56,518 nucleotides of DNA, filler included, from Platydemus manokwari (GCA_037951405.1; 5 parts of 5 records of this genome joined end to end with filler, not necessarily neighbours in it), one strand, 5' to 3'. Positions 8,343-56,518 are shown, counted from the whole stretch's first letter. Made by a program: numbers and translations. The notes: generated from the letters alone by a model not told the origin.

Positions 8343-9384
8343 ACGGGAAAAATTAAAAAAAATATTAGCAAAATGTAAATAAATACAATTTCCATGGAAA
8401 CGAATAAGAAATATTTCTACTCTGACAGCTCGTTGCTAATGCAATTTTCTTTAAATGAAATGAGAGAACATTAAAATGATAATTAATATAATGGATAATT
8501 ATTATTTTAACAAAAACTGTTATCAACAAGATAATGACATAGAAAAACACAAAAATTCGTCTTCCAAACATTGTAATAAAATGTAAATTATTATTGAATC
8601 TTTGCTCGAATTGCTGCTCTTTTGGTAGTGACGGCTTGAAATCCAGCGGTATGTGAATCAACACTATACTTAGATGTGCATGAATTACAAATCAAGAATA
8701 ATAATCGTGAATCTTTGGACAGTTTTGTATCCGATAATTGACATGTTTTGCATATTACATAGGCTCCTAGAAAAACAAGAACTCAATTACAAAATTCTTT
8801 GCAGAAGATTCCGAAGAAATCATGACAATAAAATGTTTAATGTTTATATTTAATATCAAAATCAAAACAATGAAAAGGAGATTCATATAGTTCTACTAGG
8901 AACAGCTCACAAAAAAATTCTCTGGCACATGTAATTATTGATTTATTGGTAGAGAAATTTTCAGATTTTTTTTCTATCGAATGAAAATACAACACATTTT
9001 TAGAAAATATGATAATTATTGCAAATAGCAAGTGAAATTTTTAAAAATTATTCAAAAAACAATGTTCATAATTGTTTGGAAATAATATATATAATTTGAG
9101 ATAAATTCTCAAATGAAAAATAAAATTAAAATTTTTATTCGATATTACCAATATTTCGGCTTCGTACCAATTGGTATAGATAGTCGGACACCGATAAAAA
9201 CAACTTATTGATTTTCTCTATTATTTAGTGGATAAAAATAATTTTGTTCAAATTAAACGATTTTTATATAGTGCCCCACAGCGAAATACTACAAATACAA
9301 TATTTTAAAAATGGCATTGACTAAATCGCAATGAATTGTTCTAACTTTAAAATCCTGTTGATTATTAATTATTCAATTTCAATC

Positions 9385-10260: not shown

Positions 10261-10360
10261 NNNNNNNNNNNNNNNNNNNNNNNNNNNNNNNNNNNNNNNN
10301 NNNNTTAATTAATTAANNNNNNNNNNNNNNNNNNNNNNNNNNNNNNNNNNNNNNNNNNNN
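10261..10360. other. Assembly gap with TTAATTAATTAA linker
   Basis: 44N + TTAATTAATTAA + 44N. Confidence 0.98.
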
Positions 10361-12332: not shown

Positions 12333-12965
12333 TGTGAGGAAAATCAAAATTTTAAAAATTAAAACGGACAAAATTATAATAATTTTAAAAATAAATTATT
12401 TAAAATGTTCGTGTTTGGGGTTTCCTTGGTTTATTTGAATTATCAGTCTCTATATTAATTTTATTGTGGATCAATGCCGACTTGATCAGTCTCTGTGAGC
12501 TCTGACCTACGCCTTAAGGTACACAAATTAAAACTTAACTTATAGTCTTCTTTTCTTCACATCGCTATCAAAACTATGTGGAGATAGTATGATAGGCAGC
12601 AATGATCCAGTTAATATTTTTATCAGTCTCAAAATGTATTTTGCTCGCAAACAAATCTAAATTTCAATGATTTTATCCTATTGAATCAACAACGCAACAC
12701 TTCACGTTTACAGTAACGTTTATTAGAATTATAACAATGATACAATTATACACTTATAAAAATGTTTGGGTTTAAACTACGATATACACTAAATAAAATG
12801 ACCTAAACGGCTACAAATTACAAATTCAGGAAGAACACGGTTGCGTACTTCAACTCTAGAAGCAGAACCTTTACCTCAAGATAGTTGAGACAAAGCTCCA
12901 TAATAAAATGATAAGCGAAATACGGTATATAATAAAGATGATGATTTTATAGGTATGGTCTTACT
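12333..12965 (-). mobile_element. Partial LTR (3' half), same family as 42763-44006 and 47566-48741
   Basis: Reverse complement contains tggatcattgctgcctatcatact, gtaccttaagg..cagagactgatcaagtcggcattgatcc and gaagtacgcaaccgt, all shared with the other copies; ends ...cctcaca. Confidence 0.75.
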
Positions 12966-22967: not shown

Positions 22968-23067
22968 NNNNNNNNNNNNNNNNNNNNNNNNNNNNNNNNN
23001 NNNNNNNNNNNTTAATTAATTAANNNNNNNNNNNNNNNNNNNNNNNNNNNNNNNNNNNNNNNNNNNN
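22968..23067. other. Assembly gap with linker
   Basis: 44N + TTAATTAATTAA + 44N. Confidence 0.98.
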
Positions 23068-29000: not shown

Positions 29001-29315
29001 TAAATTATAAAATTTCTCATTTCTTCATTAACACTGAGAATTCAGATTAGAAACAATTTGTTTTACTTTTCTTTTTAAAAAATGTGTTGTTGTTCATTTG
29101 AATGTCAAGTTGATTGAGAATTTTAAAAAAATTTCTTAAATTCAAACCTACCATTGATTGTGTTATTAGGAAAATACACTATTATCGATGTTAGTTGCTA
29201 ACACTTCTTCGTTTTTAATGTTGGATTCAAAAGTCATAAATTTTTTTAACGCGCAAAAAATATATTTATATAATACATCTTTTCCAAACAAATATTCTAT
29301 TATTTTTAACATTCT

Positions 29316-33353: not shown

Positions 33354-33453
33354 NNNNNNNNNNNNNNNNNNNNNNNNNNNNNNNNNNNNNNNNNNNNTTA
33401 ATTAATTAANNNNNNNNNNNNNNNNNNNNNNNNNNNNNNNNNNNNNNNNNNNN
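33354..33453. other. Assembly gap with linker
   Basis: 44N + TTAATTAATTAA + 44N. Confidence 0.98.
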
Positions 33454-35419
33454 ATTGATTGGGATTTACATATACACCAATTAAAAACCTAATGTTTTAT
33501 CTCACTTATTTCTCAATATGTTCATGAAAATTTGATTTCACTTTTATCAGTGTATTCAAATGATTTTTGCTCGCAATTATCAAGGAAATAAAACGATCAG
33601 GAAAAAGAAAATGAAAGAGAAAAGGAAAATTTTAATTTCAAATTTATTGTAGAAACCTCTTTATTTTCCATAATCAAATGCTTTCATTTTTTTCCGTTGC
33701 TTTTGAAAACGAAAGTGGTTAATGATTTATTATCTTTTATCATTGATTTCTCCTGTGATGAGAATTACAAATATCGACTAAACATGTCATTATTTTGCAA
33801 ATGATAAACAGCTATATTCATTTGGGAAATAGCTAGTATTTGATATTTATATTGAAACCTTAATGAATTGATCATTGTATAGAGTATTGCATATTTTGAT
33901 GAACCATAAGATCCTTTTGTTCGTTTTAATATTCATGAGTGAAAAAATCTCAAAATTGATCGATTAGTGATTGGTTTATTGTTCGATCGATCTTACTTAT
34001 CGAAATGCAGAATTTCAATGGCACAGTGCCTGTTGTCAAACCGTTTCCGTCAACTATTTCTCTTAACTGTTATTTTATTGGTCCAATTAAATGATATATT
34101 CACAGATCAACTAAAAATGTGGACAATATATATAAATTGTTGCCGTGACTTTTCAGTTCAGTTTTAAAGTGTGGTGTTTAAAATAGTAGCGGCTTGCATA
34201 GAGATTTAATATAAAATTGTTGATGCTCAATTGTAAAAAATTTTAAACTTATTTTTACCTAATTAATTTATGTTTAAAAATTTAATGAAATTTGTATCAA
34301 AGATTTTAAATTTAATATTCTTATCAATAAGTTATTGATTAATAATTATTATGTTCTTAATCTAATAAAATGTTCATGCTTTCATTTATATTTACATATG
34401 GAAATTTTGACAACTCATTTATCAGTCAATGAACCTGATGTCAAAAGCTGATAGGTGAAATAACAGATTTGCTGGTAAATTTGATTTATAAACTTGCTAT
34501 TATTAACAAGTTTGGTTTTTTGGAAGTTAGCCATCAAATAGTGAGATATTTAATTATTTTTTAAAATTATTCTCCAATATTATAATTGGCTTTCTCATAG
34601 TTAAATTATATATTTATTTTTTAGTTAATTTAATTTAAATTATTTGTTTGAAACAATAAAATAGAAGTTAATATTTGTGAGACATTTAATGTTTCACATT
34701 TTAAATATAACAGTTTTCTAAAAATAACTTTGAATATTTGTTGGAATATTTAGGCTGAAAAATACTTTTATGGTTGAACTTCTTAAATTCGTGTTTTATA
34801 AAATAATTGTGAGTTACATAGATAATTTAAGTTAGGGATTTACTTCTAAGAATAATTTGTCAAACAAGATGGAATAAAATATAATTAATCTTAGTTACAC
34901 AATAAAATCAATAAATCAATTATTCGAAAACCATTAAAAGTTTAAAATTAAAACAAGTATTTTAAAAAATACTATAAAAAAGCGCGAGTATAAATGCTAA
35001 ATTTGTAAAAAAACATTTGAAACTTTTCAGCCTTTTAAAACCCATGAGAAATCCTAAAAAATTTAAAAATATAAATGATAGTTGTGAGGTTTGTATAAAA
35101 ATACGATAAATAATTAAATTTTAGAAAAACAAATAAAATTATAAAAAATTGAGAAAAACATTGATATTTATAAAATGATCTTGCTTTAAAAAAATTAATT
35201 TTAACATCTCAGTTTTAAAAAATATTAAAAAATTGGATAAATTATTAAAAGTAAAGATGTAATATAAATATGCAAGCAATTTTATTTGAAAGAAGAAATA
35301 TCAGATGGAAATAAATTTTAAATATTTTAAAAAATGTTCAAAAATTGATGTATTGAAAATATATTTTTGGGTTGGTGAAAAAATGACTTTTTATTTAAAA
35401 ATCAAAGACGAAGAAATTT

Positions 35420-36230
35420 TGGCAATTAACCTGGCTACCACGCACATGAATTCCATAGTTAGTTTGTTGCTGCAAGAAAGATTTAAAATTGGTGATAATA
35501 TCGAACAGTTTATAAAATTTTACGAATGCAAAAGAGTAGCTCACATACCAAGAAATTGTCCAAATACCATGAAGTGTGATAGATGTCAATACTGAGAACA
35601 TCACGAGACAGAATACTATAATAATTTAGCCAAAAGAGTACGACAAAGGACCAACTACTAGTAAAGTACAGCAATAATCCACAGAAGGATTGATCACAGG
35701 CAGAGCACCACAAGAAGAAGTCCAATTAATGATGACAGATATAATTTCGATGGATAAAATTACAGAATGGTGACCCGAAATAATAAACCAGAAGCTGTAG
35801 TCGAACAAGAATCGTATTCAGAATACAACAAAGAATAAACATGATAACACGCAGACTCCCATAGAATGGATCTGGCTATACACTAAACAGCAAATATAAG
35901 TCTGAGCAAGATTCCGAGAGTAATTATATTAGTATTTATAATATAAATATTTTATTTAAAAGAAACAGAATGAAAAATAAAATAAAAAAACAAGGCAAGG
36001 TACAGAGCATAGATAGTTCAGAAAGTAAATAAACAAATTTAATAACTACAATGGCATAGAATCAGGAATGATAGTACAATGAAAAGTCGTAAAATGGATG
36101 ATAGAATTTGGATGCTTGTGACACACTGAAGCAAGAGTAAATGTCATAAATAAGATGATATTACAGACACTCAAAAAGGTAGAAGTCGAATATATAAAGT
36201 GAAAGTTTAAATTGTGCCAAGTTAGGAAGT
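35420..36230 (+). mobile_element. Ty3/gypsy gag-protease remnant
   Basis: Two degenerate CCHC knuckles (FYECKRVAHIPRNC; CDRCQY*EH) followed by a protease-like MLV/DTEARVNVI (D-T-G motif, frameshifted) at about 36115-36150. Confidence 0.65.
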
Positions 36231-36699
36231 CAGTTCAAGATTATTCCTATTTTTCATATTTTATATTTGAATGCATGAATAAATTTGATAAAAAATCTAT
36301 GAAATTTTTTGTGTTTCAATCTCCTCAACATTGTGATAATCATATATCGATCTAAGTTTCTTCGATATCTATAACAAAATTATGAATCCTTCAAAAAACA
36401 AAAAGAATTTGTCATTTTTAATGATTATGTTTCAGAAAAAATCAAACAAAAATGCCCACTTATTATACAAGAGGAAGTCATAATAATCATGATTATCTAT
36501 CACGAGGTTTGTTTGATTTACCAAAGAAAATAATAGGAAATAATAATTTAAATTTTATTATTTTGTTTAAATCAAATAAAAGAAATAAATCCTGCACTTG
36601 CAAGAATTATAAACAACGCGATACCACGCTGCAGTCAGCATTTAGTTTAGTAATCATCTCTTTTTCTACAGAGCACTTTTACCACAACACACACTTAAA

Positions 36700-37860
36700 G
36701 ATCAACATCATGCTGTGCCACATGCAGCGCAAATGCTCCAAATGCTCAAATGACTAAACAAGCTATTTTGTAAGTCTTGGCATATTCAAGAATAAATCAT
36801 AACAGTTCAACAGAATACTCTGGTTTGCGATTAAGAATACTTCACCAAACTCGAGCTAGAAAATTAAGAAGTCTCTAAGGATTCAACACTGAACAGAATA
36901 ATTCTGGTATTATGGATCTTTCACAATAATGTCATTTGATTAGCCCAAAACTCCAATGACTCCAGCATCTCGCTTTACACACTATCAGATTCAGACGCAG
37001 AAATTCCTCAAAAATCCTCCATGTCAACTAGATCTCACTTACATAATTTCTGTCAAAAGAGTTGCTATAACTTCATCATATATGTTTCTAATTGATGGAA
37101 GAAATGCACAGCGAAACTTTTGTCCAAAAATTTACTGTCAATCCAAAACATAAAATTAAAGTCATCTAATCAAATCAGTAGGTCAACATTGATTATTTGC
37201 TTGAGTCTTTAGGTTTCTGACTGTTTTGCTTGGGATTTCGAACATATTTGTTTTAGACAGGAAAACAAATACAACAAGGAAATGGACCAAAACATGGTTT
37301 GTACCTCGAAAACTAATCACACATTAAATCTCTGTCAAGTCCAATCACCATAACAATAAGATACAACTGAAAGTCACTGTGTATCCGGATAAGATATACT
37401 TTTTCTTTAAAGAAAACCGTGGGAAACTCTATCGTATACTTCATTACTCATCATCAATGTCCTTTTTCAATGAATAGTCCGCAATAAAAAAACAGAGCAA
37501 TCATCTATCACAAAAATAGCTAAAATTATCAAATTCACTCACCAAGCTCGTAACAATCTGCTTTTACAGAACTTTACAACTTATTTTAAGAATCTCAACA
37601 AGTCAATATTTTTCCGCAGATGCGAAATGGATGCGTATAGTTTTATCCACTGTCCATTGGACCCTGGTCTTGCATCGAAACGCCATATCACTATTTTGGA
37701 TAATTTCGGACACTATTAACAATCTGTTGGACTGGAGACTGACATCCATTCAAGCCCGCCTAAATCTAGTACAAAATCAAGACTAAATCTAATCATCAAA
37801 AGCAAAGGGAAGAAACAGAGCAGCGAAATTCTCAGTTCTCAATCTATAACCTTTTGGTCT
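36700..37860 (+). mobile_element. Possible heavily decayed LINE (CR1/L2-like) reverse transcriptase
   Basis: Weak motifs in the expected order: LSL*VSDCF (LDF.KAFD-like), KWTKTWFVPRKL (KWI.SWL..RKQ-like), VTVYPDKI, KLVTICFYRTL. Confidence 0.3.
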
Positions 37861-38968
37861 TTCGCTTTTGATTTCCAAAAAAGGTGCGAATTCAAATCGT
37901 TTTGACCCATTGCGCAATAATTACAATAATATTTTATTTTATATTTTAATTAATTTTTTTATCTTATACGACTTTATAACCTTAATATATCTAAAAACAT
38001 TTATTTTGTTCGTAATTTACCAATCTCCACCACTACTAATTATCGTCACAGAATTTCTCATATTAATATCTCGCAGCTAACACCTTATTTATGCACACTT
38101 AATTAAATGAATTTAATATTACATCATCACATCATGATGTGAATAATTCAATTGTTTCTGAACTTCCACGCATCAGAACCATAATTACTCACATATCAGT
38201 TCCACATCGTACTGAATGTCTGAACTTCTCTTCTTTAGCTGAAGGCAAAATAACTCTCCGGTCAAATCATTTAAGCGTTCATTATTTCACATGATACTTA
38301 ATCGTTTTGGCAATTTTTTCTATTTTATAATCTCGACTCCTGGAGAATTGTTTTCTGATTAATTCACTGGAATAATCAACGCTGGAATTTATACATTATA
38401 GACATTACAAAATCCGCTTTATTTTTCATCGATCTTGCCACCTGTTTTCTAAGTGCTTTCTTTTCACAAACTCTAAATCCGATAAATTAGCAAATATCAG
38501 ATGAATTCAATCACTATTACTAATATTAACGCAATTAAGTCTTATAGTGTTATGTTTTTTCCACGCGGGCCACTCATTGAAAAAGGAAATGGATGTCCAA
38601 TCATGAAGTATATCAGTCTCAAACTATGATGAACACAAACTAGCTCCCGTGAGATGTCTTTTTAAAAATATGACGCAATGCTAACGAACTTTTTTGGCAC
38701 CAAACTAGATCAACAAACAAATGCAAAGCACTGCACTGGACCTTCGTCGTAAATAACTAATAGTTCAAAACTCACTAGTCTTAAGAAATCAACCACCAGC
38801 TACGACAAAAGAAAAATTCTCATGTGAAGTCGAATGAATCCTCAGCTTAAGCGAATCCAAAAGATCCTGCATTTCAATCAAAGCATCAGCCAGTTTTCAC
38901 TCTTAAAAATCTACCTTATCTTCGTACAAGAAAAGTCCTTCTTCTCAAGAAATTAAACACAAAAAGAT

Positions 38969-39488
38969 ATGAGAAAATTAAAACTTTCATTTTGGACACG
39001 AGCTTTCGTTACAATTCAAAATAAACAATCGCCATCGGCAAACGTAACTCTAAAGCAAGGATTAGAAACAATGAATTTACGAACCAATTTTTGTATATAC
39101 TGTAAAAAGATATAAGGATATATCACTGATTGGAACATTAGCAAAAATAGGAATAAATAAAGAAAAGGAAATCAAATTAAATAACACCATGCCATCTAAG
39201 ACAATCATATTATCATCATTGGGAATACATAATATAACATATACACAGTGTTATGCGAACCAATATACATCGAAATGATATTGTAAAAAAAGAAAAGCAA
39301 TCCAGTGGAAAAATGAATTAGAACAAATAAGAAAAGAAAAAGATAAAATAATTAAGGATAGAATTGGAACGTTAAAAACTGTTAAAAAATATGAACAACA
39401 TATTAAGAGTTTAAAATTTGCCTTAATAGCTAGTCTAGCTATAACATTCATAGCAATAATAATAATATATGGAAAAAAGAAGAAATAA
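38969..39488 (+). pseudogene. Decayed accessory ORF with CxxC, coiled-coil and C-terminal TM helix
   Basis: Fragments MRKLKLSFW..FCIYCKK, QWKNELEQIRKEKDKIIKDRI, LKFALIASLAITFIAIIIIYGKKKK. Confidence 0.45.
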
Positions 39489-39598
39489 TGATATCACAAC
39501 ACCAATAATATATGGAAGAAGAATTCCAAGAATAGCAGCACTAACAACTGTAATGATAATGATACCATGCGTTCAAACGTGCGACAGCCCAGTCATGA

Positions 39599-40138
39599 TG
39601 TTCACTTTTTATTAATATAGGTAGAGAAGAATTAAAAGTATATAGTAGATATGGAAAGATGATACTGAATAACAAATATAAGAATGAAAAGATGAAATCA
39701 TTTACGGTACAACTTAAAAAAGAATTAAGAGTTAAGGGGGAAAGAAATTGGCAAACATCTGATAATAGATTACTCGAGAGTGACAATGGAGCTGTAAATA
39801 TATATAATTTAAATTGCAGAACCATATATCAGTTAGAAATAAGTAAAGAAAAAGATATCACAACAATGACAGTCCAAACCTCCGAATTACCCCGTAAAAT
39901 ATTTATTGAAAAACTCTTAGATCAGATTAAAATCATTTGGGAAGATTTAAAATGCCTTGAAGTAAGAGTGCCTGTAAATGAACATCAATATAAAATAAAT
40001 ACATTAGAAGGAATCATCACCCGGAATTTCAACATCAAAAAACCTGTAAATTTATATTTCTGGTATTATGAAAAAAGAAATCCCGAATTCATAATTCATC
40101 GAGAGCAAATAATACTAAAACCCTTTGTAAAAAAATAA
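39599..40138 (+). pseudogene. Accessory ORF, divergent macro-domain-like (TARG1/OARD1/Poa1-type)
   Basis: Collinear resemblance to TARG1: FTVQLKKEL~IAVLFKKKF; GAVNIYNLNCRTIYQLEISK~GEVAVLKRDGRYIYYLITK; LDQIKIIWEDLKCLEVRVP~LEAMKSHCLKNGVTDLSMP; INTLEGIITRNF..VNLY~WENVSAMIEEVF..ITVY. Frame is open from 39599. Confidence 0.45.
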
Positions 40139-40789
40139 TAACAACAAAATTTGTTAGTAAAACAACAACGAAGACTATGAGAACATCAGTTAATAATATC
40201 ATGACCCTCAAAAGTTATAAGAAACCCAGAGTGAAATCACCCCAAACATAATGAAGGTCGGAGCAGTTATCTCCAGTCTGACCACCATAATGATAATGTT
40301 CATAAGCTATAAGTTGTATAGGAAATATTGCAGAGACAACCCTCGTGTATGGGAAGTCAATCTATAGCAATTTCAGAAAAAAATAAATTCTCGTTGTAAA
40401 ATCTTTGGTTATTTAATTTCAATCAATTTGTATAAGTATCAATGGGACCAGAAAATCAATATGTACATAAAAAGTAGTTATTTTAATAATTTAGAAATTT
40501 TAAATGAAAAAAATTTGTGTAAATATCAGAAATCAATATATAAAACAATAGTTGATTACTTCAAATTATGTAAAAATAAAAATAAACTTTTATGTCAAAG
40601 AATGTATGAAGGATTTAAATATTGTAGATATAAAATAAAGCATGGTGAATTAATAAATGTAATTAATTTTCTTACAAAAATGACAGCAAATAAAATAATG
40701 GGAAAAAATAATTTAACCAATAAGAAAATTCCTGAAAAATCCTTACCCAATGAAAAAATCACGCATACATAATCAACCAACCAAAATCA

Positions 40790-42658
40790 TGCGCTAAGCT
40801 CATATAAAAGAAACTCTTTAGTAGATAAAAATCATAAATTCCTAGACGTAAATATTGATTGACAACTGTACAAGTAAGGATTTGTTATTTTAATATTGGC
40901 ACCAATTACGATATCATGATTACAGACATGGAACCAGCTACGAGTATAGTGCAATATTACCCTAGACGTTTTTACAACGCCATCCGTGCAGCAGTAAGAA
41001 AAGCACCGTTCGGGATTGGCAGAAGAATATTTTCAGATGCAATCCACATACCCAACAATTTGAAAACAGCGTCCCAGTCTAAAAGAACAGTATTAATTCT
41101 GCATTCACAGGAGCAGGGAGTGTTCAAATTGAAGGACATCCTTCCAATACTCAAATTTGCCCCACAAGAACTTAAGATACACAACGTTCAAAGCGATGTC
41201 TTTATCGAATACCCAGAAGAAAAAATTGAACTTGAAACGCAAGCATCAATAACCATTTATATGAAATCTCAAATTCGACCCAATTTTCAGAATGATTACA
41301 CGCAGATAAAAATCAAAGCAAAAACTATTCCATATTCGATAATGATAGAATGTATTGAATCGGAGCAATTAGAACCCGTTGAATTAAGAGAGAGCCGTTA
41401 AATTTCAATTTACTGAACATGCCTTTCCTTGGTCCGAAAAATGAGATGTCATTTTTAAGAAATATCATCCCGATAAACCAGCAAGAAGTAAAAAAGCTGA
41501 CAGTCTTCTTCGATGCCAAATATGCAATTGATTTTAACAATAAAGAGTATCCAGTGTGGATATGTTTAAAGGATAACAGAAGAAATGACATTTTTAATGA
41601 AATTTGTTGCCCGAGGCAAGAGATCAAGCATTACCAGGAAAATAAGACACACACAGCAGAAAGCATGACCAGAGGAGCTATGGATGCTGAAGATGCCAGG
41701 AGAAAGGTGATAGAGTTAACCAGGGGAAAGATACTGGGTGGCTATGATCTTAAAAGGAAACTAAAAGCAGTCTCGATTTATATGGAAGAACTACTTGGAG
41801 TCAGGGATCTAAAGGGATAAATTGCTGTAGAAAATGAAATGAGAAGAAACCGGCATTTTCTGAGCAAAAACTTGCACGCGGCCATCGTGGAAAGGAAGAT
41901 GCCACAATTCAGGAATCGAACTGATGAAATTGATGCAATAATGAACATCTATCAGAAAATTGAGTCAAAATGGCAAGATAAAGAAGGAGACAATGACGAA
42001 ACTAGATGGAAACAAAAAATTCAGGATGAAGGACAACAAATGATAAAAAAGCCACCAACATATTCGAGTGGGCAGACGAGGAAATATTGACTGAAAATAC
42101 TATTATACGAGCCAAAAATCAAATATGGAAACTCAAGTCAGCAGAGGAACAAGTCCTGGAAAACAAGAGGAATAAATTTTGGAAAAAAAATATTCGGGAG
42201 TTCAAGACTTTGAGCGGATGGAAAAAATTCAGGTAATTAATTATTGCAATGAAATTCAGCCAGCAGCAGAAAAAATGGAATTGGACAATGAAAAAGAGTG
42301 CAAAGACGATGATGAATACGAACTCACATCTGAAGATGAAAGATTCCTAGAACAACTCTGTCAAGAGTCCATAATCGAGGATCAAATGCTGAAAAATGAA
42401 GAGGAATTCGAACAATTATGGCGAGAAGCGGAAGAGTATATTCGCCAGGATATTGTCAGAAACTCCAATCTCAACCCTAATGGGGAGGAATTCATCCCGA
42501 GACAATTATAGATGAGCACCAATGAAAAGAATCAGCCAATTGAAGTAAATGAAAGGAAACGAAAACGATCTGAAAATGCTGATGAGCCTCTAAAAAGAAA
42601 AAGCATGAGGACATGCTTCCATCAATCCCCGAGTAGTGTTGGGGATCGATCGATTTAA
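40790..42658 (+). pseudogene. Decayed long accessory ORF: unknown domain + DEDDh (REXO4/ISG20/PAN2-like) exonuclease fold + PAIP2-like acidic/PAM2 region + NLS
   Basis: ORFs 40859-41401, 41419-41820, 41839-42090 and 42179-42511 are joinable through a few frameshifts and single in-frame stops (41818-20, 42509-11). Motifs VFFDAK, GKILGGYDLKRKLKAV, VRDL, DAIMNIY, SNLNPNGEEFIP, RKRKR..KRK. Confidence 0.7.
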
Positions 42659-42752
42659 CAATTACTTTGTGTGCAAATAATACTTTTTTATTTTATTTTT
42701 GTGTTTTATTAACATTTAATGAACTTTTATATGTATAAAAGTAATTCTTATT

Positions 42753-42761
42753 AAAAAGGGG
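42753..42761 (+). promoter_or_regulatory. Polypurine tract preceding the 3' LTR
   Basis: aaaaagggg, 1 nt upstream of TGTTAA. Confidence 0.6.
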
Positions 42762-42762
42762 T

Positions 42763-44006
42763 TGTTAATTAGTAATTTTGTAACAATTTTTAGTGGAGAC
42801 GGTTGAATGATTTAGTATTAATGTATTTTTAGAAATAGTAATTAAAATGTTAGGAACCTTTTCGATACATTTGACATGGTGTCAAATGTATCAGAAATTT
42901 TTATCAATTTTTCGTAAATAATTTATGAACACAATTCCAGAGGGAGTTATAACGAAATATTTATAATAATAATAGTTTATAATAATATTGATAATTTATA
43001 TAAAATTACGTAATAATTATTATTTGAAGTGGCAACAATATAATTTATATTAAACAAATTAAAATGGCAACAGAATTAAATAATTAAAGGGAATAATATT
43101 ATAATATTTCTAGCATTAAAATTCTATAGTAATTTTAATAACAATCAATATTCGGAAAAACCCATGGGGAATTTTAAATATTGTAGCGATTTTAATCATT
43201 TAAGCCTGACGAATAAGAATAGTATAAATACAAGTTCAAATATCAGAACTTGCCCATTAATTTACGAAACCACAAGCCGATAGTACGTTTGCAAGAAGAT
43301 TATTAATACCAATCTCTCGAAGTTTAGAAGAATTGCTCGACCACAGATCATACGCCATTTTATGCCAATTTGCCATTTCAAGTAGTAAGTCAGATTTTGT
43401 GTAAACTACTGATTATCAATCTATAGTACGTATTGTATAGCCTTCTATTATAGAGTTTTACTCAAACACCTTTGGTAACTGGTTTTACGCCAAGAGCAGG
43501 CTGTATTAACCACTGTCATCTGGAATTTTTAGGTAAACCCGTCATCCGAATTTTTATATTGTTGTATAAAAGTATCGGAAATTGTAATTTTGTTATCGTA
43601 TCAATAAACCTTTTATTTAGTCAAACGTGTTGGAATTATCAATTGATATTTTAAAGTTAATATTGTTGAGACTGATTAGGATTAAAACACCCCTTTCGGA
43701 TCATTGTTGCCAATCATTTCTATCTTCATGTAGATTTGATTGCGAGGTGAATAAAGAAGACAATATAATGTTTAAGTGTACCCTGGGCTTGATTAGAACT
43801 CGCCAGAGACTGATCAAGACAACAGTGATCCTTGAGCAAAATCATTAACATTGAAATAACATTGAGACTGATTAAAACAAACAAATTAAAAATACAAGCC
43901 CAAAACGCAAAATCTATAAGAATTAGCATTTTTGATATTTTATTGTGCACAGAAATTAAAAAATTAATTAATGATAATTTTTTATTTATATTTACCTAAA
44001 AAAACA
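42763..44006 (+). mobile_element. 3' LTR (~1.24 kb), termini TGTT...AACA
   Basis: Preceded by a PPT; shares collinear blocks with 47566-48741 and 12333-12965 (e.g. ggatcattgttgccaatcat; gcttgattagaactc..gactgatcaagac; tatagagttttactcaaa). The 3' end is approximate. Confidence 0.65.
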
Positions 44007-45112
44007 TTGATAATAACGAGTCGTATTCGTTGTTGTTGTTATTGATGGAAATGTTATGATATTCTGGCGATAATAATGATTTGAATCAATTAGACAATCT
44101 CTATGATTCAAATATTATTTTATTTTAGTCCGTTAAAAGCAGATTAATAAGTATCCACTAAAAATTTGACTCCTCACTGAATTAAGGTTACCTTTATAAA
44201 TTTGAATAAATAATAACAAATAAGAATTATAAATGATATTTTTATTAATCAGTAATTACACAATATATGATCAAGTAAAATTAAAAGGATAAGCTTTATG
44301 CCCTGAAGTAATGAAAATCGGCGGAGGGTTTAGGTTCTCCCTTCTCCGAATACAAACTAAGAGAATGAAAAATGATTTTTAAGATCTACGAACTCTAATT
44401 TTCTTCAACTAATCCCATGTCGGAGATTGATGAAAAAATGATAATTTATAAAAACAAATAGAAAGTTACCATTGCAAGTGTAACGAATAAATAATTCCGC
44501 TGATCTTAGAATTCTATGTTCAGTAATATGCATCACAGGAAGCAGTTGATCATGAAGTTTCACGGATTATGATCTCTGAATGACAGCAATATGAGTTGCT
44601 GAATACTGACGTATGAATATAATGATCACCTTATTTCAGTGTGTGAAATATTTGTGCGATTTTTACTCAAATTTGTTTGCATATATACTGTTTCTCACGA
44701 GTTGCTGACTAAGCGTATAACACATAGTCAAGCTTCCTCGGAGCTTTCTGACGTTGCCATGGTTTTATTACTGAATAATTGAAGTTTCCATGGCAACTTA
44801 TGATTTGGTCATGTGAATTCTAAATTAGTCACTGCTGGGTAATAATGGTTTTTCTAAATTGGTCATATAATTTTATAATATAACTTGTTTTATAATTTTC
44901 TATTACGTAATTTTATATGTAATTTTTTAATTATTATATTATCTGTATTATATTATATGTATACTGGTCGACAAGATGTTTAACCCGGTCTTAATTAATA
45001 TACATTAAGGCGTTTTCCCAATTATTATTGTTGAGTTATTAGTATAACTGATTAATTATATGGTTATAAACACGAAAATAAATTGAAACCGTTTTCACAT
45101 GGTTATAAATAA

Positions 45113-45212
45113 NNNNNNNNNNNNNNNNNNNNNNNNNNNNNNNNNNNNNNNNNNNNTTAATTAATTAANNNNNNNNNNNNNNNNNNNNNNNNNNNNNNNN
45201 NNNNNNNNNNNN
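45113..45212. other. Assembly gap with linker
   Basis: 44N + TTAATTAATTAA + 44N. Confidence 0.98.
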
Positions 45213-46860
45213 TGATCAGTTCTCACAATAAATTTCTTACCATATAAGTAGTGCTTAAATTTTTTAACAAACACATAGATGGCTAGCAATTCTTTTCTTG
45301 TTATACAATATTTATGCTGCCCTTTTGTCAGTATTCTTGATGCGTACGCTATCACAAGTTCTTCTCCGTTTTGTATTTCCCTTCAAATTTCCATTCTCTG
45401 CATGAAATTAATGATAATTTCGATTTATGAAAAGATGTTGTTACTAAATCGCTCCACTCAAATTTACTGTCTTTCTTCAGTAATTGGTATAGTGGTTAGG
45501 TAAAACCAACAAAATATTTTATAAACCGCCTATCATAACCACATAATCCAAGATGATCCTGTAGTTCCTTGACACATTGAAGTTTTAATCAATTTTCTAT
45601 TTCCCCAATTTTTTCTTCATCTCTTCGTTTACCTCAATTTTTTACCCTTAATTTCCTAAATGCTTAATTTCTTTTCTAAAGAAAAATAATTTTTGGTGCC
45701 ATTTTAAACCCAGCCTCATCGATTCGATTCAAAACCCTTTCCAACTTTTTATTGTTTTCATCGACTGTTCTTTCAAATATTCGAATATCATCTAGATAGA
45801 AAGATAGACTACACAGTTTGTCCAATTTTCAGTCTTCATTATCACATTCATAATTGTCTGAAAAGTTGCGGGCACTGAATATAATCCAAAAGACATTCGA
45901 TTAAACTGAAATTGCCTGTATCTAGTGTTAAATTGTGTTTTTTCCTTTACTTCTTTTTCTAATTCAACTTGATAATATCCGTTTGCCAAATCTATTGTTG
46001 AAAAATATCTGGCTCCTTGCACAGCAACAAATATGTCTTCGGAATTCGATATAAGAAAAATTGAACTGGACGTAGCAGCATTTAACTTCATAGTCTTCGC
46101 TGATTACATTAAGCTCAGTTCCTGTGTCAAAACTTATATTCACTTTCTCATCTTCAACTTTACTATCGACTATTGGTAAGCTTTTTGTCTTTTCTGGTCT
46201 GCGATTCGTTGAAACCGTGTCTGTTTTGCCAACATTCGTTTTGGTTTAGCTCCTTGAATATTCACAAACTGTGCATAATTGACTTCGGTCGAATTGAATT
46301 GTTTGTCCCTAGACTTTTTTGGCTTAAAAAGTCACCAATATCCAACATATTGCAATCTTTCTCAGAAAGTGTATCCAACCCCCAGATATTGTCCTCTTCT
46401 AATGTGATGCTTCTGTCCTATGTATTTAAGTATTTGATTTGTACGACAGATTCTTTGCTGATGGGAACCAGCATATAGAAAACATTCAATTGTCTCACAT
46501 TAACGAGCATAATGCCATTTTTGTTAACAAGTTACGGCATCTATTGATTTGGAACCTGATTTCCGAAAAGTTTCGTTGTTCTATTAATTTGGCAATGTTT
46601 TGCTTGAGCCTTAAATTTGCTAATGATGTCCTTTTCGTCTGATTTTATGCGTTTCAGATCCCACGGTATATCCAAATCTTCTTATTCTTGATTTGAGACA
46701 TCAGTTTCTTCCTTGATAAGTATGACCACTTCATCTATATTCTTTAGGTTTGATTTCTTCAGGCCAAATGTATAGATCTCATTAAGAATCCCTTTAATGA
46801 ATATCTTCTTGGAAATTTCTTCCTTATTTTTAATATTAATCCCAGTCACGAAAAATTTAA
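45213..46860 (-). mobile_element. Ty3/gypsy gag-pol remnant (gag, protease, RT, RNase H) with internal deletions
   Basis: FDTGTELNVIS (protease); GARYFSTIDLANGYYQV..TQF..FQFNRMSFGL..PATFQ..CVVYL (RT); IAYASRIL..YCITRKELLAI..FKHYLYGKKFIVRTD (RNase H). Confidence 0.92.
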
Positions 46861-47565
46861 CTTTTTTTGAAAAAACTTAGATGGACTATGTAACAGTTAA
46901 ATATAATAATAATTATATTTAATTAAAAATCACATTTGTTTAAATTAAATGTTAGTAAAAAATAAATTACTTTCAAAGTGTGAATCTCGTCTTCTGTCTT
47001 TATACCCAACTTAGATAAAAATCACGAGTCTTACAATTATTATTATTACTATTTTGCCAAAATAACAACTTATAAAATATTATAAATTTATAAATATTAT
47101 TATAAACATTAAAAGGCATATTATTGGCATATTTATGTGCCACCCATTTGTCTAACAAGTTTACTCATGCTTTTACCAATATTTCCAGTTGTAATAACGA
47201 TTATATGTTTTTCTATCATTTACAGCATCAAGTATTTGAGAGTACATTATATCAATCGATAAAAAAAATAAAATAGAACACATAATATAAATGGAGGACA
47301 CAATCAATAAACAAAAAAAATAATAAATGCATCAAGTAACTTCTACTGAAAGGACCAGGTGATTATGAATTCAAGAAGATATGGCAATAACAAGAAGCAT
47401 GTTTATTTTAGTTTTGATTTAATTTTAGAAACAAAATAATAAATCAATAGCATCACATTGATATGGCCTTCTATATTTTAAAAAATCCTAAAAAGAAAGT
47501 ACTCATAAAGTATATCAAAACATAAAATATAACCATTAATCTGTAAAAAGTTGCACGACAAGGAT

Positions 47566-48741
47566 TGTGTAAAGAAAAAGCATAAAAATAATGACCAAAT
47601 GAGATAATTCGCCATTTCAAGATGAATAGGCATGAAAGATAAAAATGATTTATTATTGATACCTTAAATTTTGGACATAATTTACCAAGAGAATTTTAAT
47701 ATAAAAATTATTACGAAATTATAATTAAATTATTATCGTTAAAAATTATATCTTGATATATTACAATGGCTAGATAAGTTAAATCTTTAGGGAATAATAT
47801 TTAATATAATGATTTAATATAAAGATATGAGATATTTATAATAATGTAACAAAATACATATTCAACATTATTATAAGCGCCGTTTCAATTAAGAATAAAT
47901 AGGATTTGGAACATTACAACTGCCCATAAATTACTGAAACCACTAAGAAGCATATTTATTATGAAATCTACGATTTGCCAAAGAAGCCTGCGAATTATTC
48001 GACTCGATTTCCAGATTCAACCATTGTATTAATTTATTATTCAAGTCAAAGTGAGTCCGACTAATAGTATAAAATATTAATCGGTATTATATATTGTATC
48101 GTATATTTTCATACTATAGAGTTTTATCTCAAAAAAACCTCATCACGGTATTTGGTTCGGCTTCTCGAGATGAAGTTTGCAACCGTTTCTTATTTCCAGA
48201 ATTGTAAGACAATTTTGATTATACGCATAGTGTAATTATAAATAGCAAATTTATAATTGGTGTCAATTTATATAATAATAAAACTTACTGAATTCGATAG
48301 TTGTTAATTTGATAACGTACATAACATAGTTATAAGATAATTAAATTTGAGACAGATAATAGGAAAAGTATTTGGATCATTGCTGCCAATCATACTCTCA
48401 TCAAATAGTAATGATTGTCAGGTGAAGATAAGAAATAGTAAATTAAGGTTTAATAGATTGTACCTTAAGCTTGATTAGAACTCATTAAGATTGATCAAGA
48501 CGGCATTGATCCACAGTAACAAAATAGAAAATAATAAAACTGACAAGATAAAACATAAATCCACATGCTCGAAACACATCATATTAAATAAATTATTTTA
48601 TCTTATGTGTTATTTCATTTATACACGCAACATATTAATCTGTTAAGAATTAGATATTGGTTTTAACATTAATTTATAAAAAATCATCGATCGTCATATT
48701 GTTGATTTGTTTAATAGATCATCAGATTTTAAATAATTAAA
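47566..48741 (+). mobile_element. 5' LTR of a related LTR element (start approximate)
   Basis: Collinear similarity to 42763-44006 from about 47680 to 48580; followed by a PBS-like sequence. No clean terminal CA. Confidence 0.65.
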
Positions 48742-49705: not shown

Positions 49706-52700
49706 AGCCTTTCGATATTAATTTTCTTAAATAATTATGTTTAAATATATAATTTTTAACTTTTCAAGTCGTTTACAATGCGTGCTTTATGAAAAAGTAG
49801 CGGCTTTAACATTACTAATTTTGATCTTGTCTTTTTTTTCTGATTTTTCGATTGAAATTTAATTGTATTGATTTCGTTAGATTAAGAGAGGAAATCACCT
49901 CAAATAAGGTGTGTCGAATAGGATTCGATTTTCACAAGAAAATTATGTTTCAAAATTTAGCTTTGATATCCATTTGAATAGATATTTGTTTTAATGAACG
50001 TTTTAATCATTGTTCTCAGTTTTTATTGTTAAAAATTTCGATTGTGATTTTTTTTCTAACGGTTTTCATTCTTTAGACTGAAAACTCAAAATGACTTTGA
50101 TATGTTCAATTATTTCATCATTTCAAATAACTCATTTATTTAATCACAAAGTGCCCGATGATATTCGAATTTTAAATCCTTACGAGGTTTATTTGAAAAG
50201 AAACAAAATGATCTTTTAAAAATGCGGAAAAATAATTAAAATTTACATAATATGAAAATTATTTAAAAATTATGTTAAAAATAAATATATCATATTCATA
50301 TTTATAAAAGATCTTGTTAAACAATATTGTTAAACTCTAAGTATAACAATTATTTAAAAAAAATTGAAATTAAAAAAATATAATATAAAAATGTAAATAT
50401 ATGATAAAAAATGTAGACAAATCTGATGGGACAAATTGTAATTTTGAAATTTTAAAATTGGGTTTTAAATTTTTAACTTTGCTTGAAAATTGATGTAATA
50501 ATAAATGTATTATTATTCCGATAAAAAATGACTTCTGATTCAAATCTCGAGCATGGAGACATTTTGGCAATTAACAATCCCCATAAATCACAACGAAAAC
50601 GCAAATATGTAAAACATCTTACAAAAATATTTAAAGAGGATATTATAATCGTATATATGAGTAAATAGAGTATTTTGATAAATTCAATTTTATACATTAG
50701 AATATTCAAAATTAGTTATGGATAATTTTATATATAGCAGTTTAGATAAATATTTGACTGGAAAATTTAAATTTGTAATTTATTTGTAGAACTCATATAA
50801 GATAAAAATAATAATAATATAATTGATAAGATATAAAATTGTAAATAAAATAAAATATTTTAATAATGAAATTATTAAACAGCTTAGTTTATGAAAACAA
50901 AATGTCAGCATATTAATACATGTTCAGTATTGTTATAACAAATTATCCTTATACACTACTATTTCAACATCACAAACTAGTCGGAAACATCTTTCCACAT
51001 TTTGAACAATCATAATTAACCATTCCATTAATCTCATTTATTATCATTATAATTATAAATAATGAATTTTTAATTTATGAATTTTTAATGAAATCTAACC
51101 TCAAAACGACTTCAAAATCAGAAAGAGTTTTGTCAGCTTCCGTGTTGGCATGTGGGATTACCTTAATTGGATGTCCTTGTTGATAAAATGGCAACTATTC
51201 CAATTTTGAGATAAATTTCAATTCAAAAATCAAGGCGCATCTAAAATGTATAATTAAAGATTTAGTATTTAGCATAAATACTTGACCAACGTTTTGCAAG
51301 ATTATTGTTTACTTTAAAATTTTTATTGCATATTGCAGTGCTTCCTTTTTTCAAATTTTTAACTTTGATTTGAAACTCTTTATTTTATAAATAAAATTTT
51401 ATTCATGTTATATCAATAAGGTTTTGGATACACATAAATAATTTTAATTAAAGCTAACTTATTCCTTGAGGATAATGTACAAATTAAATTTATTCTTGGA
51501 TTTATCTTAATAAAAATAAAATTACCATATCGGTTATTTAATTTTAGAATTGTATCATTTATATGTCTAGTTAAACAATAGTAATAGATTTAGAATTTAT
51601 ATAATTATTTGTATTATAATTTATTTTGTGACAAATCATATTGGTAGAGACTGAAATCGTAATAAATATTTCATCAATTTTCGAAAATATTAATAGATTA
51701 ACAGTTAACGTTTGACATTTGATGGATATATATAACATTTAATTTTTAAAAAATATCCACTCAAACATCTAAATAAATATTTGACTCGTTGAGATTCTAA
51801 TTAAAAAATCCTGGAAACTGGTTTGGATTGTGAACTTATTTAATATTGCAGTTATATTTTGAAATTATAAATATTGAGAATAAACAAAGAGACATCTAAA
51901 CAATTGGTTATATTTAAGCTGAAAAGTTCTATTTGAAATTTATTTTTAATTTTAAATTAAGAAATTCTTGAGTACGTTAACTTAAAAAGTTGGGCTTTTT
52001 AAACAGGAATAATAAAAATATTCAAAAGTAATATTTTTAAATTACTAAAATAAAATTAAAAGATATATATTTCTCTCTGTCTAGTCAGAATCTGAGAATT
52101 TTGAACTGTCTGATATAGTTCCGGATCTGTGGTTTTCATAGTAATATTTTAAAAATTCAATTTACCATAGTTATTTACCACGTTTCAACAGTAATGGATA
52201 TTTTAATTTTAAAAATTATGATCTAGTATAAAGTTCTCTCGTCAATAATGACGTATAATTATGAAAGATGTCATGATCTTTTAATTTTTAACACCCCCAA
52301 ACAAGGCACAATGAATTGTGTCTTATATTCAATAATAATTATGACTTCACATCTATCAATGATATGAAAGTTAGCTTTACATTTGAAATTATAATTGAAT
52401 TTGTTGTGTAGATAATAATTTATAATTTTATTAAAATAATCAAGTTATCGATATTTAAATTCAATACTAATCATCCGAAAACCGGAAAAATGTTATAATT
52501 CTCAGTATTAATCTCCACTATCTGCTATTTTTGATTATTTATTAGTGTGTATTAATATTGATGATATTCAAAACCAAATGTGTTTTCATTGGAATTACTT
52601 TATATTAAATTTGCTCACAATATTCTGAACATTTTAGTAATTAATATTCATATTTCGTTTAATTTTGGCTACTTAATAATTTTATTATATTAACGGATAT

Positions 52701-53408: not shown

Positions 53409-56294
53409 TCATAGAGTAGGCCTTTATATATCACACTAATAAATTAAGGAAAGGTTTTTTCAATTTCGAGACTGACTCCAAATGTTAATTTATGAAAGAA
53501 TCAATAGTGATTACATAATTTTTCAGGCATTCCTATCCCAAACAAATTTAAACACATTAGTGAAATATGTTTTAAATTTGCCAAATGCTAAATTTAAATT
53601 TTTTAAATCATATTAAGCTAATTTCGATCTTAGTTTGATTGAGTTATATGAATTGATATAAATGATTAGTAAGTTACGATAATACTGTGATTCGTTTCGA
53701 TTAAACGGGATGTTATTAACCGACTCCAATGGCATTACTCGTTTCAGTTGAAATAAACGAAAAAATACAAATTCATGAATGGATGGAATAATAAAAATTT
53801 TGTTAATATTTGAAATTTTTCTACATTTTTGTGAAGCTTAAATTTCTAAGTCGTAAAATCTTATTTCATACTGTTATCAATGATGCAACAAGTCAGCTAA
53901 GAACGGAATCAACATCTCGAACTTAATCAATCAATCAGTATATTTTCAATGTCAAATTACAAGGTTCACACACTCACTTAATAGAAAACGGTAAAGCTTG
54001 AAACTGTTAGATTTATTTAATTATTTTTCTTTATTTTTAACATTATCCATATTAATGATTTTTCCAAAAAACGTTTTCAACAATCACAAAATTTAACTAT
54101 ATTGATATTAGTTTCAATTTTCGTCCCAGTTTCAGATTCGATAATCACTAGAATGACTGTCGTATTTGTAACAATTTTCACAGTCATTCTACTGAGACAT
54201 TAAAGAGTCTTCAATTTTCTAATTTCACTTGATTATATTTCGATCTTTTCATTATCTTATCTTTCAAATATTTTTATCGATTCCATTTATTTAAATATAA
54301 AACATCGATGAAGTTTTTAAGTTGTTAATTTTAATAAAGTAAGCATTGGAAACTGACCGATAAGTCACGACACCAAATGATTCCTAAACATTTTTGTATT
54401 TTATAAAAGTCTGATTTTAAAATCTTCACAACGCTTAATATATTTTAATAAGTCTGTTTTCACCTGACTAGTTATTGAGGTTAATCAACAACTTTTATCG
54501 TTTATAGTTATTCTAGTTTTATTGTCTAGACTCTAGACTGAAAAATTATCTTTTTTATTGTTGTAAAATTGTTCTTCTTTTTAATGTTAAATAATTTTAA
54601 ATCTGCGAACCAATTACTGAATAATAGTCATGATCTGTAGAATTATTTTCTCTACATTTTAGTCAGTATTGAATCATTTACAAACATCCCATTCTTCGCA
54701 GAACACTATGACACTCATCTTATTATTCAATTTAGCTGTGAATAATATATGGGAATTTGCCATACGCCTTTTACTTCATTATCTTTCGAAGTAAAAGCGC
54801 ATTAATCGTCGCGATCTGGTAAAAAAATTTGGTTCATTGTTTTACAAAGCACGAATAACAATGCCATTTCTAATTTTAGTTTAGCTATCCATTTCTGTGC
54901 ACCGTAGACAACCAAATGAAAATACTTTTGGGAAGAAAAAGTTTAAAAGGTGTTATAATAGAGGACATTGTTTTAAGATGCAATCACGGTTTTATTCTTT
55001 TGTCTAACTGAAAACGAATCCACCACAATTCTCTCATGATCCCATTGGTCTAATGTAAATCTTGAGATCCATGGGACCTTAATTGTAAATCATTGAAATA
55101 TAGTTTCACAATATCATATAGCATATTTATCGAGTCATTATTTGATAAAAATCACACCAAAATAATATCCGAAAAATACTTTCATATTCAAATAATAATG
55201 GCTAACTAATTATTTGAAGGCAAATAGTTATTTTTAGATAGAGACTCTGTCAGCAAAGTTTAGATTTTATCAATAAACTGAAAGATGACTTTGTGCTAAA
55301 TATACAACAGTCTGTAAGTCGATGTAAATTTCCTATCCAAACAAAATCAGGTGAACCGTTTAAATAAAAATGACATTTCAAATTGACCACGAATTATCCA
55401 GTTAAGAATCAAATATATCAAAATGATCGATTCATGTGTAGTACAAATACGATTCCAAGGAACGATCGATTCTGATTGGGTAATTTCGACATTTATATAA
55501 ATAAATAACATTTTTCAAATCCTTGCCCCCAACCGGGACACCCGTGAACATTTGATAGCTTTTAATTTCAACAAGAATTTCCTCACATCGACAATTCATT
55601 TTTTCATCACAACCTATCATTAAGTTAAACAGAACAAATTTATTTGAACTTCATTTTCATTACAGCAAAGGCAGATTTTATTTGAAAAACAGTCAGCAAA
55701 ATTTTTACTTCAAATGATATTTTAATTAAATGACGTTTGGTGATTTAGTGGATTTATTTTAATTGCCATAAAATTGGAAATGATTTGACTGATAGGAATG
55801 ATATTTTGTCAATTTTGCTTTTTATTAATAACGATTGGCTAATTAGGTTTCCATTTCTTCATTGTTTGTAGAAGACTATTCATAGATAAATTAAATTTAA
55901 ATTCTTATGTCAGTCGATATTATGCGTCCCTATTTTCTATATTAAGCTAATTACTCTCATACTAGTTTTCTAAATCAATGATGACCATCATCGTATTTTG
56001 AAAGAATATAAACAATATATCATTAACATTTGATTTCGATGTTTAATATGGTTGAAAAATAAACCTGAAATTTGAATGTTAGAGAAATCTACCAATCTCA
56101 TGTTACCATGAAAATAAATAATGATCTTTGTGAGGTTAATTTGATAAAAAACAAAATGATATTTTAAAAATATGATTATTATCAAAACTATTATTAGTAA
56201 TGTGAAAAATAAATATACCATTTCGATATTTATAAAAGCCTAGGATTTTGAAAAACAATACTGTTATACACTCAGTATAAAAATAATTAAAAAT

Positions 56295-56518
56295 AAAATT
56301 GTTTGGATCCGGAAATGCCAAAATCAGAGCTGTGCATAATTGTTCCTTAAGGTTTCCAAAACTTTCCTCACACTCTGTACTCCACTCCAATTTCTTGTCA
56401 TTTCCAGTCATTATCGTATATAACGGAGCCGTAATTAATGGGTAATCCTTGATAAATCTTCTGTAATAATTGCATAATCCTAGGAACGACCTCAACTGAG
56501 TGATGCAACCAGGTTTAA
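56295..56518 (-). mobile_element. Ty3/gypsy pol fragment (RT thumb/connection), runs off the window
   Basis: LRSFLGLCNYYRRFIKDY..ITAPL..LEWSTECEESFGNLKEQLCTALILAFPD. Confidence 0.92.

Follow-up and report, generated by a model that had tools for sequence, protein, structure and literature searches.

A predicted cupin-DEDDh nuclease-like gene in the probable accessory region of a decayed LTR retroelement of Platydemus manokwari

What kind of genes lie ahead of a long terminal repeat (LTR) in the genome of Platydemus manokwari (GCA_037951405.1), and what might they do for the element that carried them? The locus occupies positions 38969-44006 of a stretch of 56,518 nucleotides, five genome records joined end to end with filler, which we refer to in its entirety as the window. 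An original prediction, made from the sequence alone, had read it as the cargo of an LTR retroelement, containing membrane anchors, a macro-like domain, a DEDDh exonuclease fold and a tail with a PAM2 motif, and had proposed that these parts serve as a counter-defense or translation toolkit. Our analysis indicates that the locus is very probably what remains, decayed and truncated at its 5′ end, of a repeated LTR retroelement: its accessory region and its 3′ LTR. The element is likely of the Ty3/gypsy type, and its last gene belongs to a family in which a DEDDh fold is predicted to be fused to a cupin barrel.

The 3′ end of a probable LTR element

Translation of 38969-44006 yielded four decayed plus-strand genes, ORF-A to ORF-D (ORF, open reading frame), that span 39.2-42.7 kb (Table 1). 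The last stop codon is followed after 94 nt by a polypurine tract (AAAAAGGGG), and the last stop, this tract and the start of the LTR all fall within ~105 nt on one strand, unbroken. The TG..CA ends, the poly(A) signal and the preceding polypurine tract identify the repeat as that of an LTR retrotransposon. The layout given in the original prediction (decayed ORFs on one strand, ending ~100 bp ahead of a polypurine tract and TGTT..AACA LTR) held, and its placement of the ORFs in the env/accessory position of an LTR element is supported by the tract, the LTR, the related LTRs and the diverged contigs described below. Its description of the ORFs as intronless is likely correct, except that a stretch resembling an intron, GTAAG..TACAG at 40874-40925, stops two bases upstream of the ATG (40928) of the cupin-exonuclease gene. 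An acceptor-like site is found at 39620, ahead of ORF-B, and splicing may give access to the downstream ORFs.

Two LTRs related to the one next to the cassette, copy B and fragment C, occur elsewhere in the window. Alignment of the LTR to copy B at 47639-48562 gave a score of 328, compared with a mean of 106 and a maximum of 139 in 30 local shuffles, and the identity of the two was 60% over 956 nt (expectation value (E) 1e-30). AATAAA is kept in all three copies, and their ACA ends fall at about the same aligned place. A right end at 43850, marked by a 7-bp inverted repeat, is less likely than one at 44006, since likeness to the other copies runs past it, to ~43940. A search with a 19-nt LTR motif returned 0 viral matches, and all 34 of the 34 metagenome loci that it hit were chance matches, without extension and with a GC content of 39-63%.

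The repeated nature of the cassette is also evident from a public sequencing run, X1, that contains the stretch; no RNA run was listed as containing it. At 80% likeness, 4236 X1 contigs matched 33460-45110, with piece-level data from 8 of 4637 pieces. Summed depth, which does not equate to copy number, rose from 14-16 in four bins of the flanks to 54-875 across the cassette and 1099-4343 across the LTR. Among the pieces listed, contigs over the cassette were 15-18% diverged, with 63 differences in 396 nt over 39740-40135 (ORF-B; 16%), 93 in 592 nt over 40579-41170 (spanning ORF-C and the cupin piece of ORF-D), 89 in ~610 nt over 41143-41768 (spanning the cupin and nuclease pieces) and 94 in 527 nt over 41204-41732. 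Among the same pieces, 36552-39251 lay under a single contig with zero differences. The diverged contigs over the cassette, set against this undiverged stretch, indicate that the cassette is a repeat and that its repeated part begins at ~39 kb. Dispersed related copies are thus represented both by the two related LTRs in the window and by the diverged cassette contigs.

The same-strand gag-protease remnant described in the original prediction is present, in degenerate form, 2.8 kb upstream of the cassette, and, as had been said, no pol joins it to the cassette. We infer a link between this remnant and the cassette; the two zinc knuckles ahead of it may or may not be part of the same element. 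Between the protease remnant and the cassette, ~2 kb (36961-38905) show a strong C-over-G skew and have no Pfam match in six frames. A dispersed repeat family (35096-35430, 50217-50575 and 29190-29279, 66-72% alike) adjoins the gag remnant. Decayed gypsy-type pol remnants are found on the minus strand at 45400-46900 (RVT_1, E 4.7e-12) and 56136-56516 (RT_RNaseH_2, E 9.4e-5); these are separate insertions, the former lying beyond an assembly gap.

The genes of the accessory region

ORF-D survives in pieces, of which those for the cupin and the nuclease lie in different frames. When the nuclease piece was searched with HMMER against 1.84 billion representative proteins, 49 relatives with E values of at most 0.001 were retrieved (18 of them at 1e-10; lowest E 1.2e-19), with identities of 22-49%. 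Its direct matches to named proteins were weak (ISG20 E 0.11, ISG20L2 E 0.5, stop read as X), no RNase_T match was obtained in Pfam for the piece alone, and a word-index search limited to the near length range found no homologs, whereas one with the family alignment retrieved 4 proteins. Full-length relatives are single chains of ~420-680 residues in which the nuclease sits between an N-terminal domain of ~160 residues and a variable acidic tail. A family alignment (A2) was made from 36 of the 49 relatives, with 13 short or very divergent rows excluded. Pfam RNase_T matches 20 of the 36, and the family profile matches ISG20L2 (E 1e-27), ISG20 (3.5e-17), SDN1 (2e-13) and Pan2 (0.002). Searched against 1771 stop-free segments of the window, this profile gave three matches, which occur in order at 40859-41398, 41383-41817 and 41821-42087 and align to profile positions 21-156, 176-301 and 305-378, the two nuclease halves with E values of 2.3e-37 and 1.1e-7. 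The match of the first segment indicates that the ORF at 40859 is the N-terminal domain of the family.

An AlphaFold model of one relative (P0005), built with A2, had a predicted local distance difference test score (pLDDT) of 82, and of >90 in the cupin domain. Residues 180-343 of this model matched ISG20 with Z 19.3 (root-mean-square deviation (rmsd) 2.1, 159 aligned) and Pan2 with Z 15.4, whereas residues 17-137 matched the cupin 3rns (VIA Z 11.8, rmsd 2.6, 93 aligned). The N-terminal domain also matched ALKBH6 (Z 10.6, rmsd 3.4, 136 aligned), and plant virus replicases were among the viral fold matches of the model. By sequence and modeled fold, the nuclease domain is of the DEDDh (ISG20/REX4/Pan2) type, and the N-terminal domain is, on the model, a barrel of the cupin superfamily, a fold transferred to the window piece by the profile. 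The DEDDh fold of the original prediction was accordingly borne out by the 49 relatives, the family profile and the P0005 model; the cupin barrel fused to it had been overlooked. The conserved polar columns of the barrel are Y19, N43, K46, R52, H80 and E133 only, and the window cupin piece retains the FY, IPN.LK, H and E residues of the family. An identity as an AlkB or 2OG-Fe(II) dioxygenase was rejected, the HxD..H iron triad not being conserved in the barrel. The cupin piece had no match in the ESM Atlas.

Although the family is diverse in sequence (22-49% identity to the window piece), its arrangement in two domains and the residues of its pocket are retained, which points to long selection. 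The relatives are encoded on contigs of up to 32 kb (14-32 kb for P0007, P0008, P0015, P0033, P0038 and P0044), and one of them, P0048, weakly matches an insect exonuclease-domain protein. No genomic locus of the relatives was found in viral contigs (queried with the window piece, two sub-alignments and four single relatives) or in prokaryote genomes.

At the catalytic D, E, D, H and D positions the window copy reads D-K-K-gap-E. Among 52 aligned rows, 39 cover all five positions, and the window row is one of the 13 with a gap. The catalytic residues D-E-[D/E]-H-D are intact in 27 of the 39 and absent in 12, five of which have the same Lys at the first motif as the window copy. Uninterrupted relatives such as P0027 and P0031 show the replacements of the window copy, and a 46-row tree places the window row in a group of 14 with most of the degenerate rows. 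The 12 degenerate relatives, the shared Lys and the tree position make the catalytic loss look like a lineage trait rather than decay alone, and the aligned residues suggest that the nuclease fold is likely inactive in this lineage.

Downstream of the nuclease piece, an acidic stretch ends in a PAM2 motif, SNLNPNGEEFIP, in which 9 of 12 residues are identical to the PAIP2 peptide of PDB 1JGN. The PAIP2-like PAM2 tail of the original prediction is therefore present as a motif, but its likeness to PAIP2 holds only for those 12 residues. A PAM2 pattern, written after the motif had been seen, matched the window once, compared with 0.05 matches expected from 60 simulations. The stretch is likely the frame-shifted C-terminus of ORF-D and possibly a separate small gene; the relatives have acidic tails at the same position, and the three cupin-DEDDh pieces and PAM2 tail would once have formed a single protein of ~530 residues. 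Basic motifs resembling that of the 48-codon ORF behind the PAM2 stop are found in 21 of 43 tails of the relatives. The otherwise variable tails of three relatives (P0009, P0010 and P0012) have an F[IV]PP.[MI]P..YL motif in common, and several other relatives end in a short beta-rich segment. The tails may be swappable docking modules.

Of the genes upstream, ORF-A has a charged helical middle, likely a coiled coil as judged by eye, followed by a C-terminal membrane anchor and then KKKK. The transmembrane helices that had been predicted correspond here to a strong hydrophobic segment at 39411-39467, with a KD19 of 2.65 (5% of 449 stop-free window segments reach 2.5), but the segment of ORF-C at 40248-40304 is weak alone (KD19 1.98; 14% of the 449 reach 2.0). 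ORF-C matched the Pfam family SPMAP1-like below its cutoff (E 0.0016). PHROGs profiles returned only weak, uncharacterized families. ORF-B is considered with the macro domain below.

Table 1. Features of the locus and related features of the window, from gag-type remnants to LTR copies
Feature	Position	Strand	Evidence or remark
Two degenerate gag-type zinc knuckles	35518..35616	+	sequence; CCHC spacing
Retrotransposon aspartic protease remnant	35966..36169	+	Pfam Peptidase_A2_2 E 0.0079, 16.7 bits, below cutoff 27, stops as X
ORF-A, ~100 codons, internal stop 39276-39278	39189..39488	+	translation
ORF-B, 179 codons between stops, with its first Met at 39659	39599..40138	+	alpha/beta protein without a recognized family
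ORF-C, internal stop 40365-40367	40251..40772	+	N-terminal hydrophobic anchor, then Lys/Cys/Tyr-rich region
ORF-D piece 1, predicted cupin (double-stranded beta-helix) domain	40928..41401	+	family profile E 3.8e-11, positions 21-156
ORF-D piece 2, predicted DEDDh fold of ISG20/REX4/Pan2 type, stop 41818-41820	41383..42090	+	frame differs from piece 1
Acidic tail ending in PAM2 (42464-42499)	42176..42511	+	translation, Pfam, PAIP2 match
48-codon ORF in frame after PAM2 stop, KRKR..KRK basic cluster, nuclear-localization-like	42512..42658	+	
Polypurine tract	42753..42761	+	sequence
3′ LTR, TGTT..AACA; candidate TATA box 43223; poly(A) signal AATAAA 43603	42763..44006	+	probable right end, from three copies
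Predicted four-way-junction RNA structure, 3′ part of LTR	43698..43831	+	kept in three copies
Related LTR copy B, ~60% identical	47639..48668	+	
Related LTR fragment C	12376..12945	-	

Readings of the accessory region

The explanation that we favor, with about as much confidence as doubt, is that the element carried a gene combining a cupin domain, an ISG20/REX4-type fold and a PAM2 motif, which would shield the element's own RNA. As a tentative mechanism, an inactive nuclease fold and PAM2 docking on poly(A)-binding protein (PABP) would provide this shield. ORF-D would make one cupin-DEDDh-acidic-PAM2 protein whose nuclease fold holds RNA 3′ ends without cutting them. Judging from its sequence, the PAM2 motif could occupy the MLLE domain of PABP in competition with Pan3, Tob and GW182, host PAM2 proteins that use MLLE and start deadenylation or silencing. 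Occupation of PABP would protect the element's poly(A) tail, and ORF-A and ORF-C might anchor element RNA or particles to membranes. We consider a broader proposal speculative: that cupin-DEDDh proteins, with their active and inactive branches, are a hitherto undescribed family of accessory proteins widespread among LTR retroelements of invertebrates, and that here PAM2 was added to an inactive member to give a one-chain Pan2-Pan3 decoy against deadenylation and small-RNA silencing.

Several observations weigh against an RNA-shielding protein of this kind. The PAM2 match to Pfam PF07145 is under the cutoff (E 0.023, 14.8 bits, cutoff 20), the motif has Gly where PAIP2 has Ala, and its frame differs from that of the nuclease piece. 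Among the relatives, PAM2 was found in 0 of 49 by a strict pattern and in 0 of 43 tails by a loose one (near-duplicates included). Its absence from all 49 means that the combination is not a conserved unit, which counts against the toolkit of the original prediction; of that toolkit, the status as cargo is supported and the DEDDh fold and PAM2 motif are real, but the macro domain is unsupported and the exonuclease is without catalytic residues in this copy and in part of its family. The basic ORF after PAM2, together with the basic motifs in 21 of 43 relatives, points to the nucleus, a poorer fit with binding of cytoplasmic PABP. The tree group of 14 is weakly supported (26/90) and long-branched. 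Within the window no pol, 5′ LTR or target-site duplication is tied to the cassette, and Pfam gave no match in six frames over ~36.3-39.0 kb. The relatives are presumed retroelement genes, and X1 is possibly the source of the window itself, in which case its evidence is not independent of the window.

Among the alternatives, it is unlikely that the element protein is an active 3′-5′ exonuclease that trims or destroys RNA ends, with the catalytic loss of this copy reflecting only decay after insertion. Such an enzyme might target the RNA or primer of the element itself, or host small RNAs in the manner of plant SDN1; the intact catalytic residues of 27 of the 39 fully aligned relatives and the profile matches to SDN1 and ISG20 are in its favor, as is the visible decay of this copy (stops, frame changes, and 2 of 11 listed ORF-B difference sites at third codon positions, in a table giving 40 of 895 sites). 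However, three or four of the five catalytic positions are changed together, and the same replacements occur in the uninterrupted P0027 and P0031. We regard as improbable the reading of the ORFs as passengers, captured or exchanged without benefit, with the PAM2 ORF derived from a PAIP2-like fragment captured separately or matching by chance. That PAM2 occurs in none of the relatives and in a frame of its own would fit such an origin, as would ORFs A-C being without a recognized family and extra ORFs of rotifer elements reportedly having no clear link to copy number (PMC5408684). The long selection implied by the conserved layout and pocket of the diverse cupin-DEDDh family speaks against passengers, and a chance PAM2 match is expected only 0.05 times per window. 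It is very unlikely that the cassette is some other repeat, or an endogenous viral fragment, merely beside an LTR. The cassette has no linked pol, and among the 8 of 4637 X1 pieces listed no diverged contig joins the last ORF to the LTR, but the unbroken succession of last stop, polypurine tract and LTR start is how LTR elements normally end on their 3′ side and argues against chance neighbors.

The macro domain of the original prediction was not matched to a particular ORF, and we took ORF-B as the best guess; the second candidate, 40859-41401, is the cupin-fold N-terminal domain of the exonuclease gene. Neither candidate had a macro match in profile searches, which for ORF-B covered Pfam (E up to 1), PDB sequences (E up to 10) and NCBIfam and returned no family of any kind. 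No ORF-B homologs were found by a word-index search limited to the near length range, the ESM Atlas gave only matches below 0.9, no locus was found in metagenome contigs, and membership in the cupin-DEDDh family was rejected, ORF-B being unrelated to the family profile (probability 0.2). A single-sequence model of ORF-B was of low confidence (pLDDT 44). With this model, Foldseek gave no match at E 0.001 or better, and the best VIA-wide match, to an acetyl-CoA carboxylase central domain (Z 6.5, rmsd 4.9, 116 aligned), was in the chance range; a macro chain was absent from the best 50 VIA-wide rows, which for such a model is not evidence of a different fold. A reading of the cassette as a virus-like counter-defense set in which ORF-B supplies a macro (ADP-ribose-binding) domain, one compatible with the shielding explanation, therefore seems doubtful. 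In its support, the elements in the C-terminal half of the low-confidence model follow, by eye, the order strand-strand-helix-strand-Pro-helix-strand, which resembles that of TARG1-type macro domains, and macro ORFs are reported in fish endogenous retroviruses (PMC4977317). In addition to the absence of profile matches, ORF-B shows none of the glycine-rich phosphate loops of macro domains, and two helices that should follow the first conserved strand are missing from the model. A very divergent macro member could escape these profile searches.

A cupin-fused ISG20/Pan2-like nuclease family with active and inactive branches offers directly testable proteins: uninterrupted natural relatives number in the dozens, their fold is confidently predicted, and binding of PAM2 to MLLE can be assayed simply. 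Few counter-silencing proteins encoded by transposons have been described in animals. Were the protein to act as a decoy, a retrotransposon would be acting on poly(A) control as some RNA viruses do; were it not, the family would still be a new class of accessory genes, whose barrel would hold a ligand in its pocket of Y, N, K, R, H and E.

Other features of the window and known systems

The 3′ part of the LTR contains a predicted four-way junction, the best-conserved part of the three LTR copies. It was recovered at 43698-43831 (plus strand, z -4.83), 48373-48512 (plus strand, z -3.25) and 12468-12608 (minus strand, z -2.00), with 45 consensus pairs, 4 of which show two-sided change among only 3 sequences. 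No Rfam family reached gathering level for this structure, and identities as twister and hammerhead were not supported. Lying downstream of the poly(A) signal, the junction would sit at the 5′ end of genomic RNA, and it is a candidate packaging or dimerization signal. Elsewhere in the window, an uninterrupted 663-codon host ORF at 6444-8435 (minus strand) encodes ankyrin repeats together with a Dpy-30 motif, and assembly gaps at 10261-10360, 22968-23067, 33354-33453 and 45113-45212 are N runs around a TTAATTAATTAA linker.

The closest precedent in position is provided by the rotifer Juno and Vesta LTR retrotransposons and Terminons. Their env position contains a DEDD-superfamily 3′-5′ exonuclease and small transmembrane or coiled-coil ORFs (PMC5408684), and the exonuclease that accompanies the membrane ORFs is of the DEDDy type (PMC5408684, PMC6431247, PMC6338049). 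The likeness to Juno and Vesta extends from the env-position exonuclease with membrane and coiled-coil ORFs to a DEDD-to-DEED change, which many of the relatives here also have. Theirs is, however, an RNase D-like DEDDy enzyme with intact sites, whereas the gene described here is of the DEDDh type, cupin-fused, partly inactive and accompanied by PAM2. It does not fall in the DEDDy class: the third motif of the family is H-x-x-x-[E]-D, and the best matches are ISG20-type chains. The words macro and PAM2 have 0 occurrences in the main text of PMC5408684. Our literature search found no cupin-DEDDh fusion or PAM2 motif in a retroelement; supplements of planarian genome papers and Repbase, which lay outside its scope, could list such an ORF. 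Rotifer elements thus already provide examples of exonuclease and membrane ORFs at the env position, and the cupin-DEDDh(-PAM2) version is without precedent in the literature searched.

Other LTR elements with accessory domains offer further parallels. Orchid Ty3/gypsy elements carry an ORF for an AlkB m6A demethylase (PMC9289625), and these elements, like the AlkB-containing replicases of plant RNA viruses, share a double-stranded beta-helix domain with the family here, in the orchid case also as LTR-element cargo; the barrel here differs in being without the HxD..H iron triad and in its fusion to an exonuclease. The Burro giant gypsy elements of planarians have BIR, MATH, ankyrin, BCL2 and env-like domains in a huge polyprotein (PMC6431247). 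Like the present element, they combine LTRs with numerous accessory domains and belong to an AT-rich genome of invertebrate type, but the named domains are absent from the cassette ORFs in Pfam searches (the 5′ part of the element is missing), and several short ORFs are found here before the 3′ LTR.

Cellular proteins provide the closest parallels in sequence. ISG20, ISG20L2/REX4, SDN1 and Pan2 have the same predicted DEDDh fold and are the closest sequence family; unlike the gene described here, no matched chain aligns over the N-terminal cupin as a unit, and the window copy is without the catalytic set. PAIP2 resembles the tail in its PAM2 motif (9 of 12 residues identical) and in an acidic region ahead of the motif, but the window motif has Gly for a conserved Ala, and the likeness is established here for the motif alone. 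For Pan2, contact with PABP is made by the PAM2 of a partner, Pan3; in that system the nuclease fold and PAM2 reside in separate proteins, whereas here they are possibly carried by one chain.

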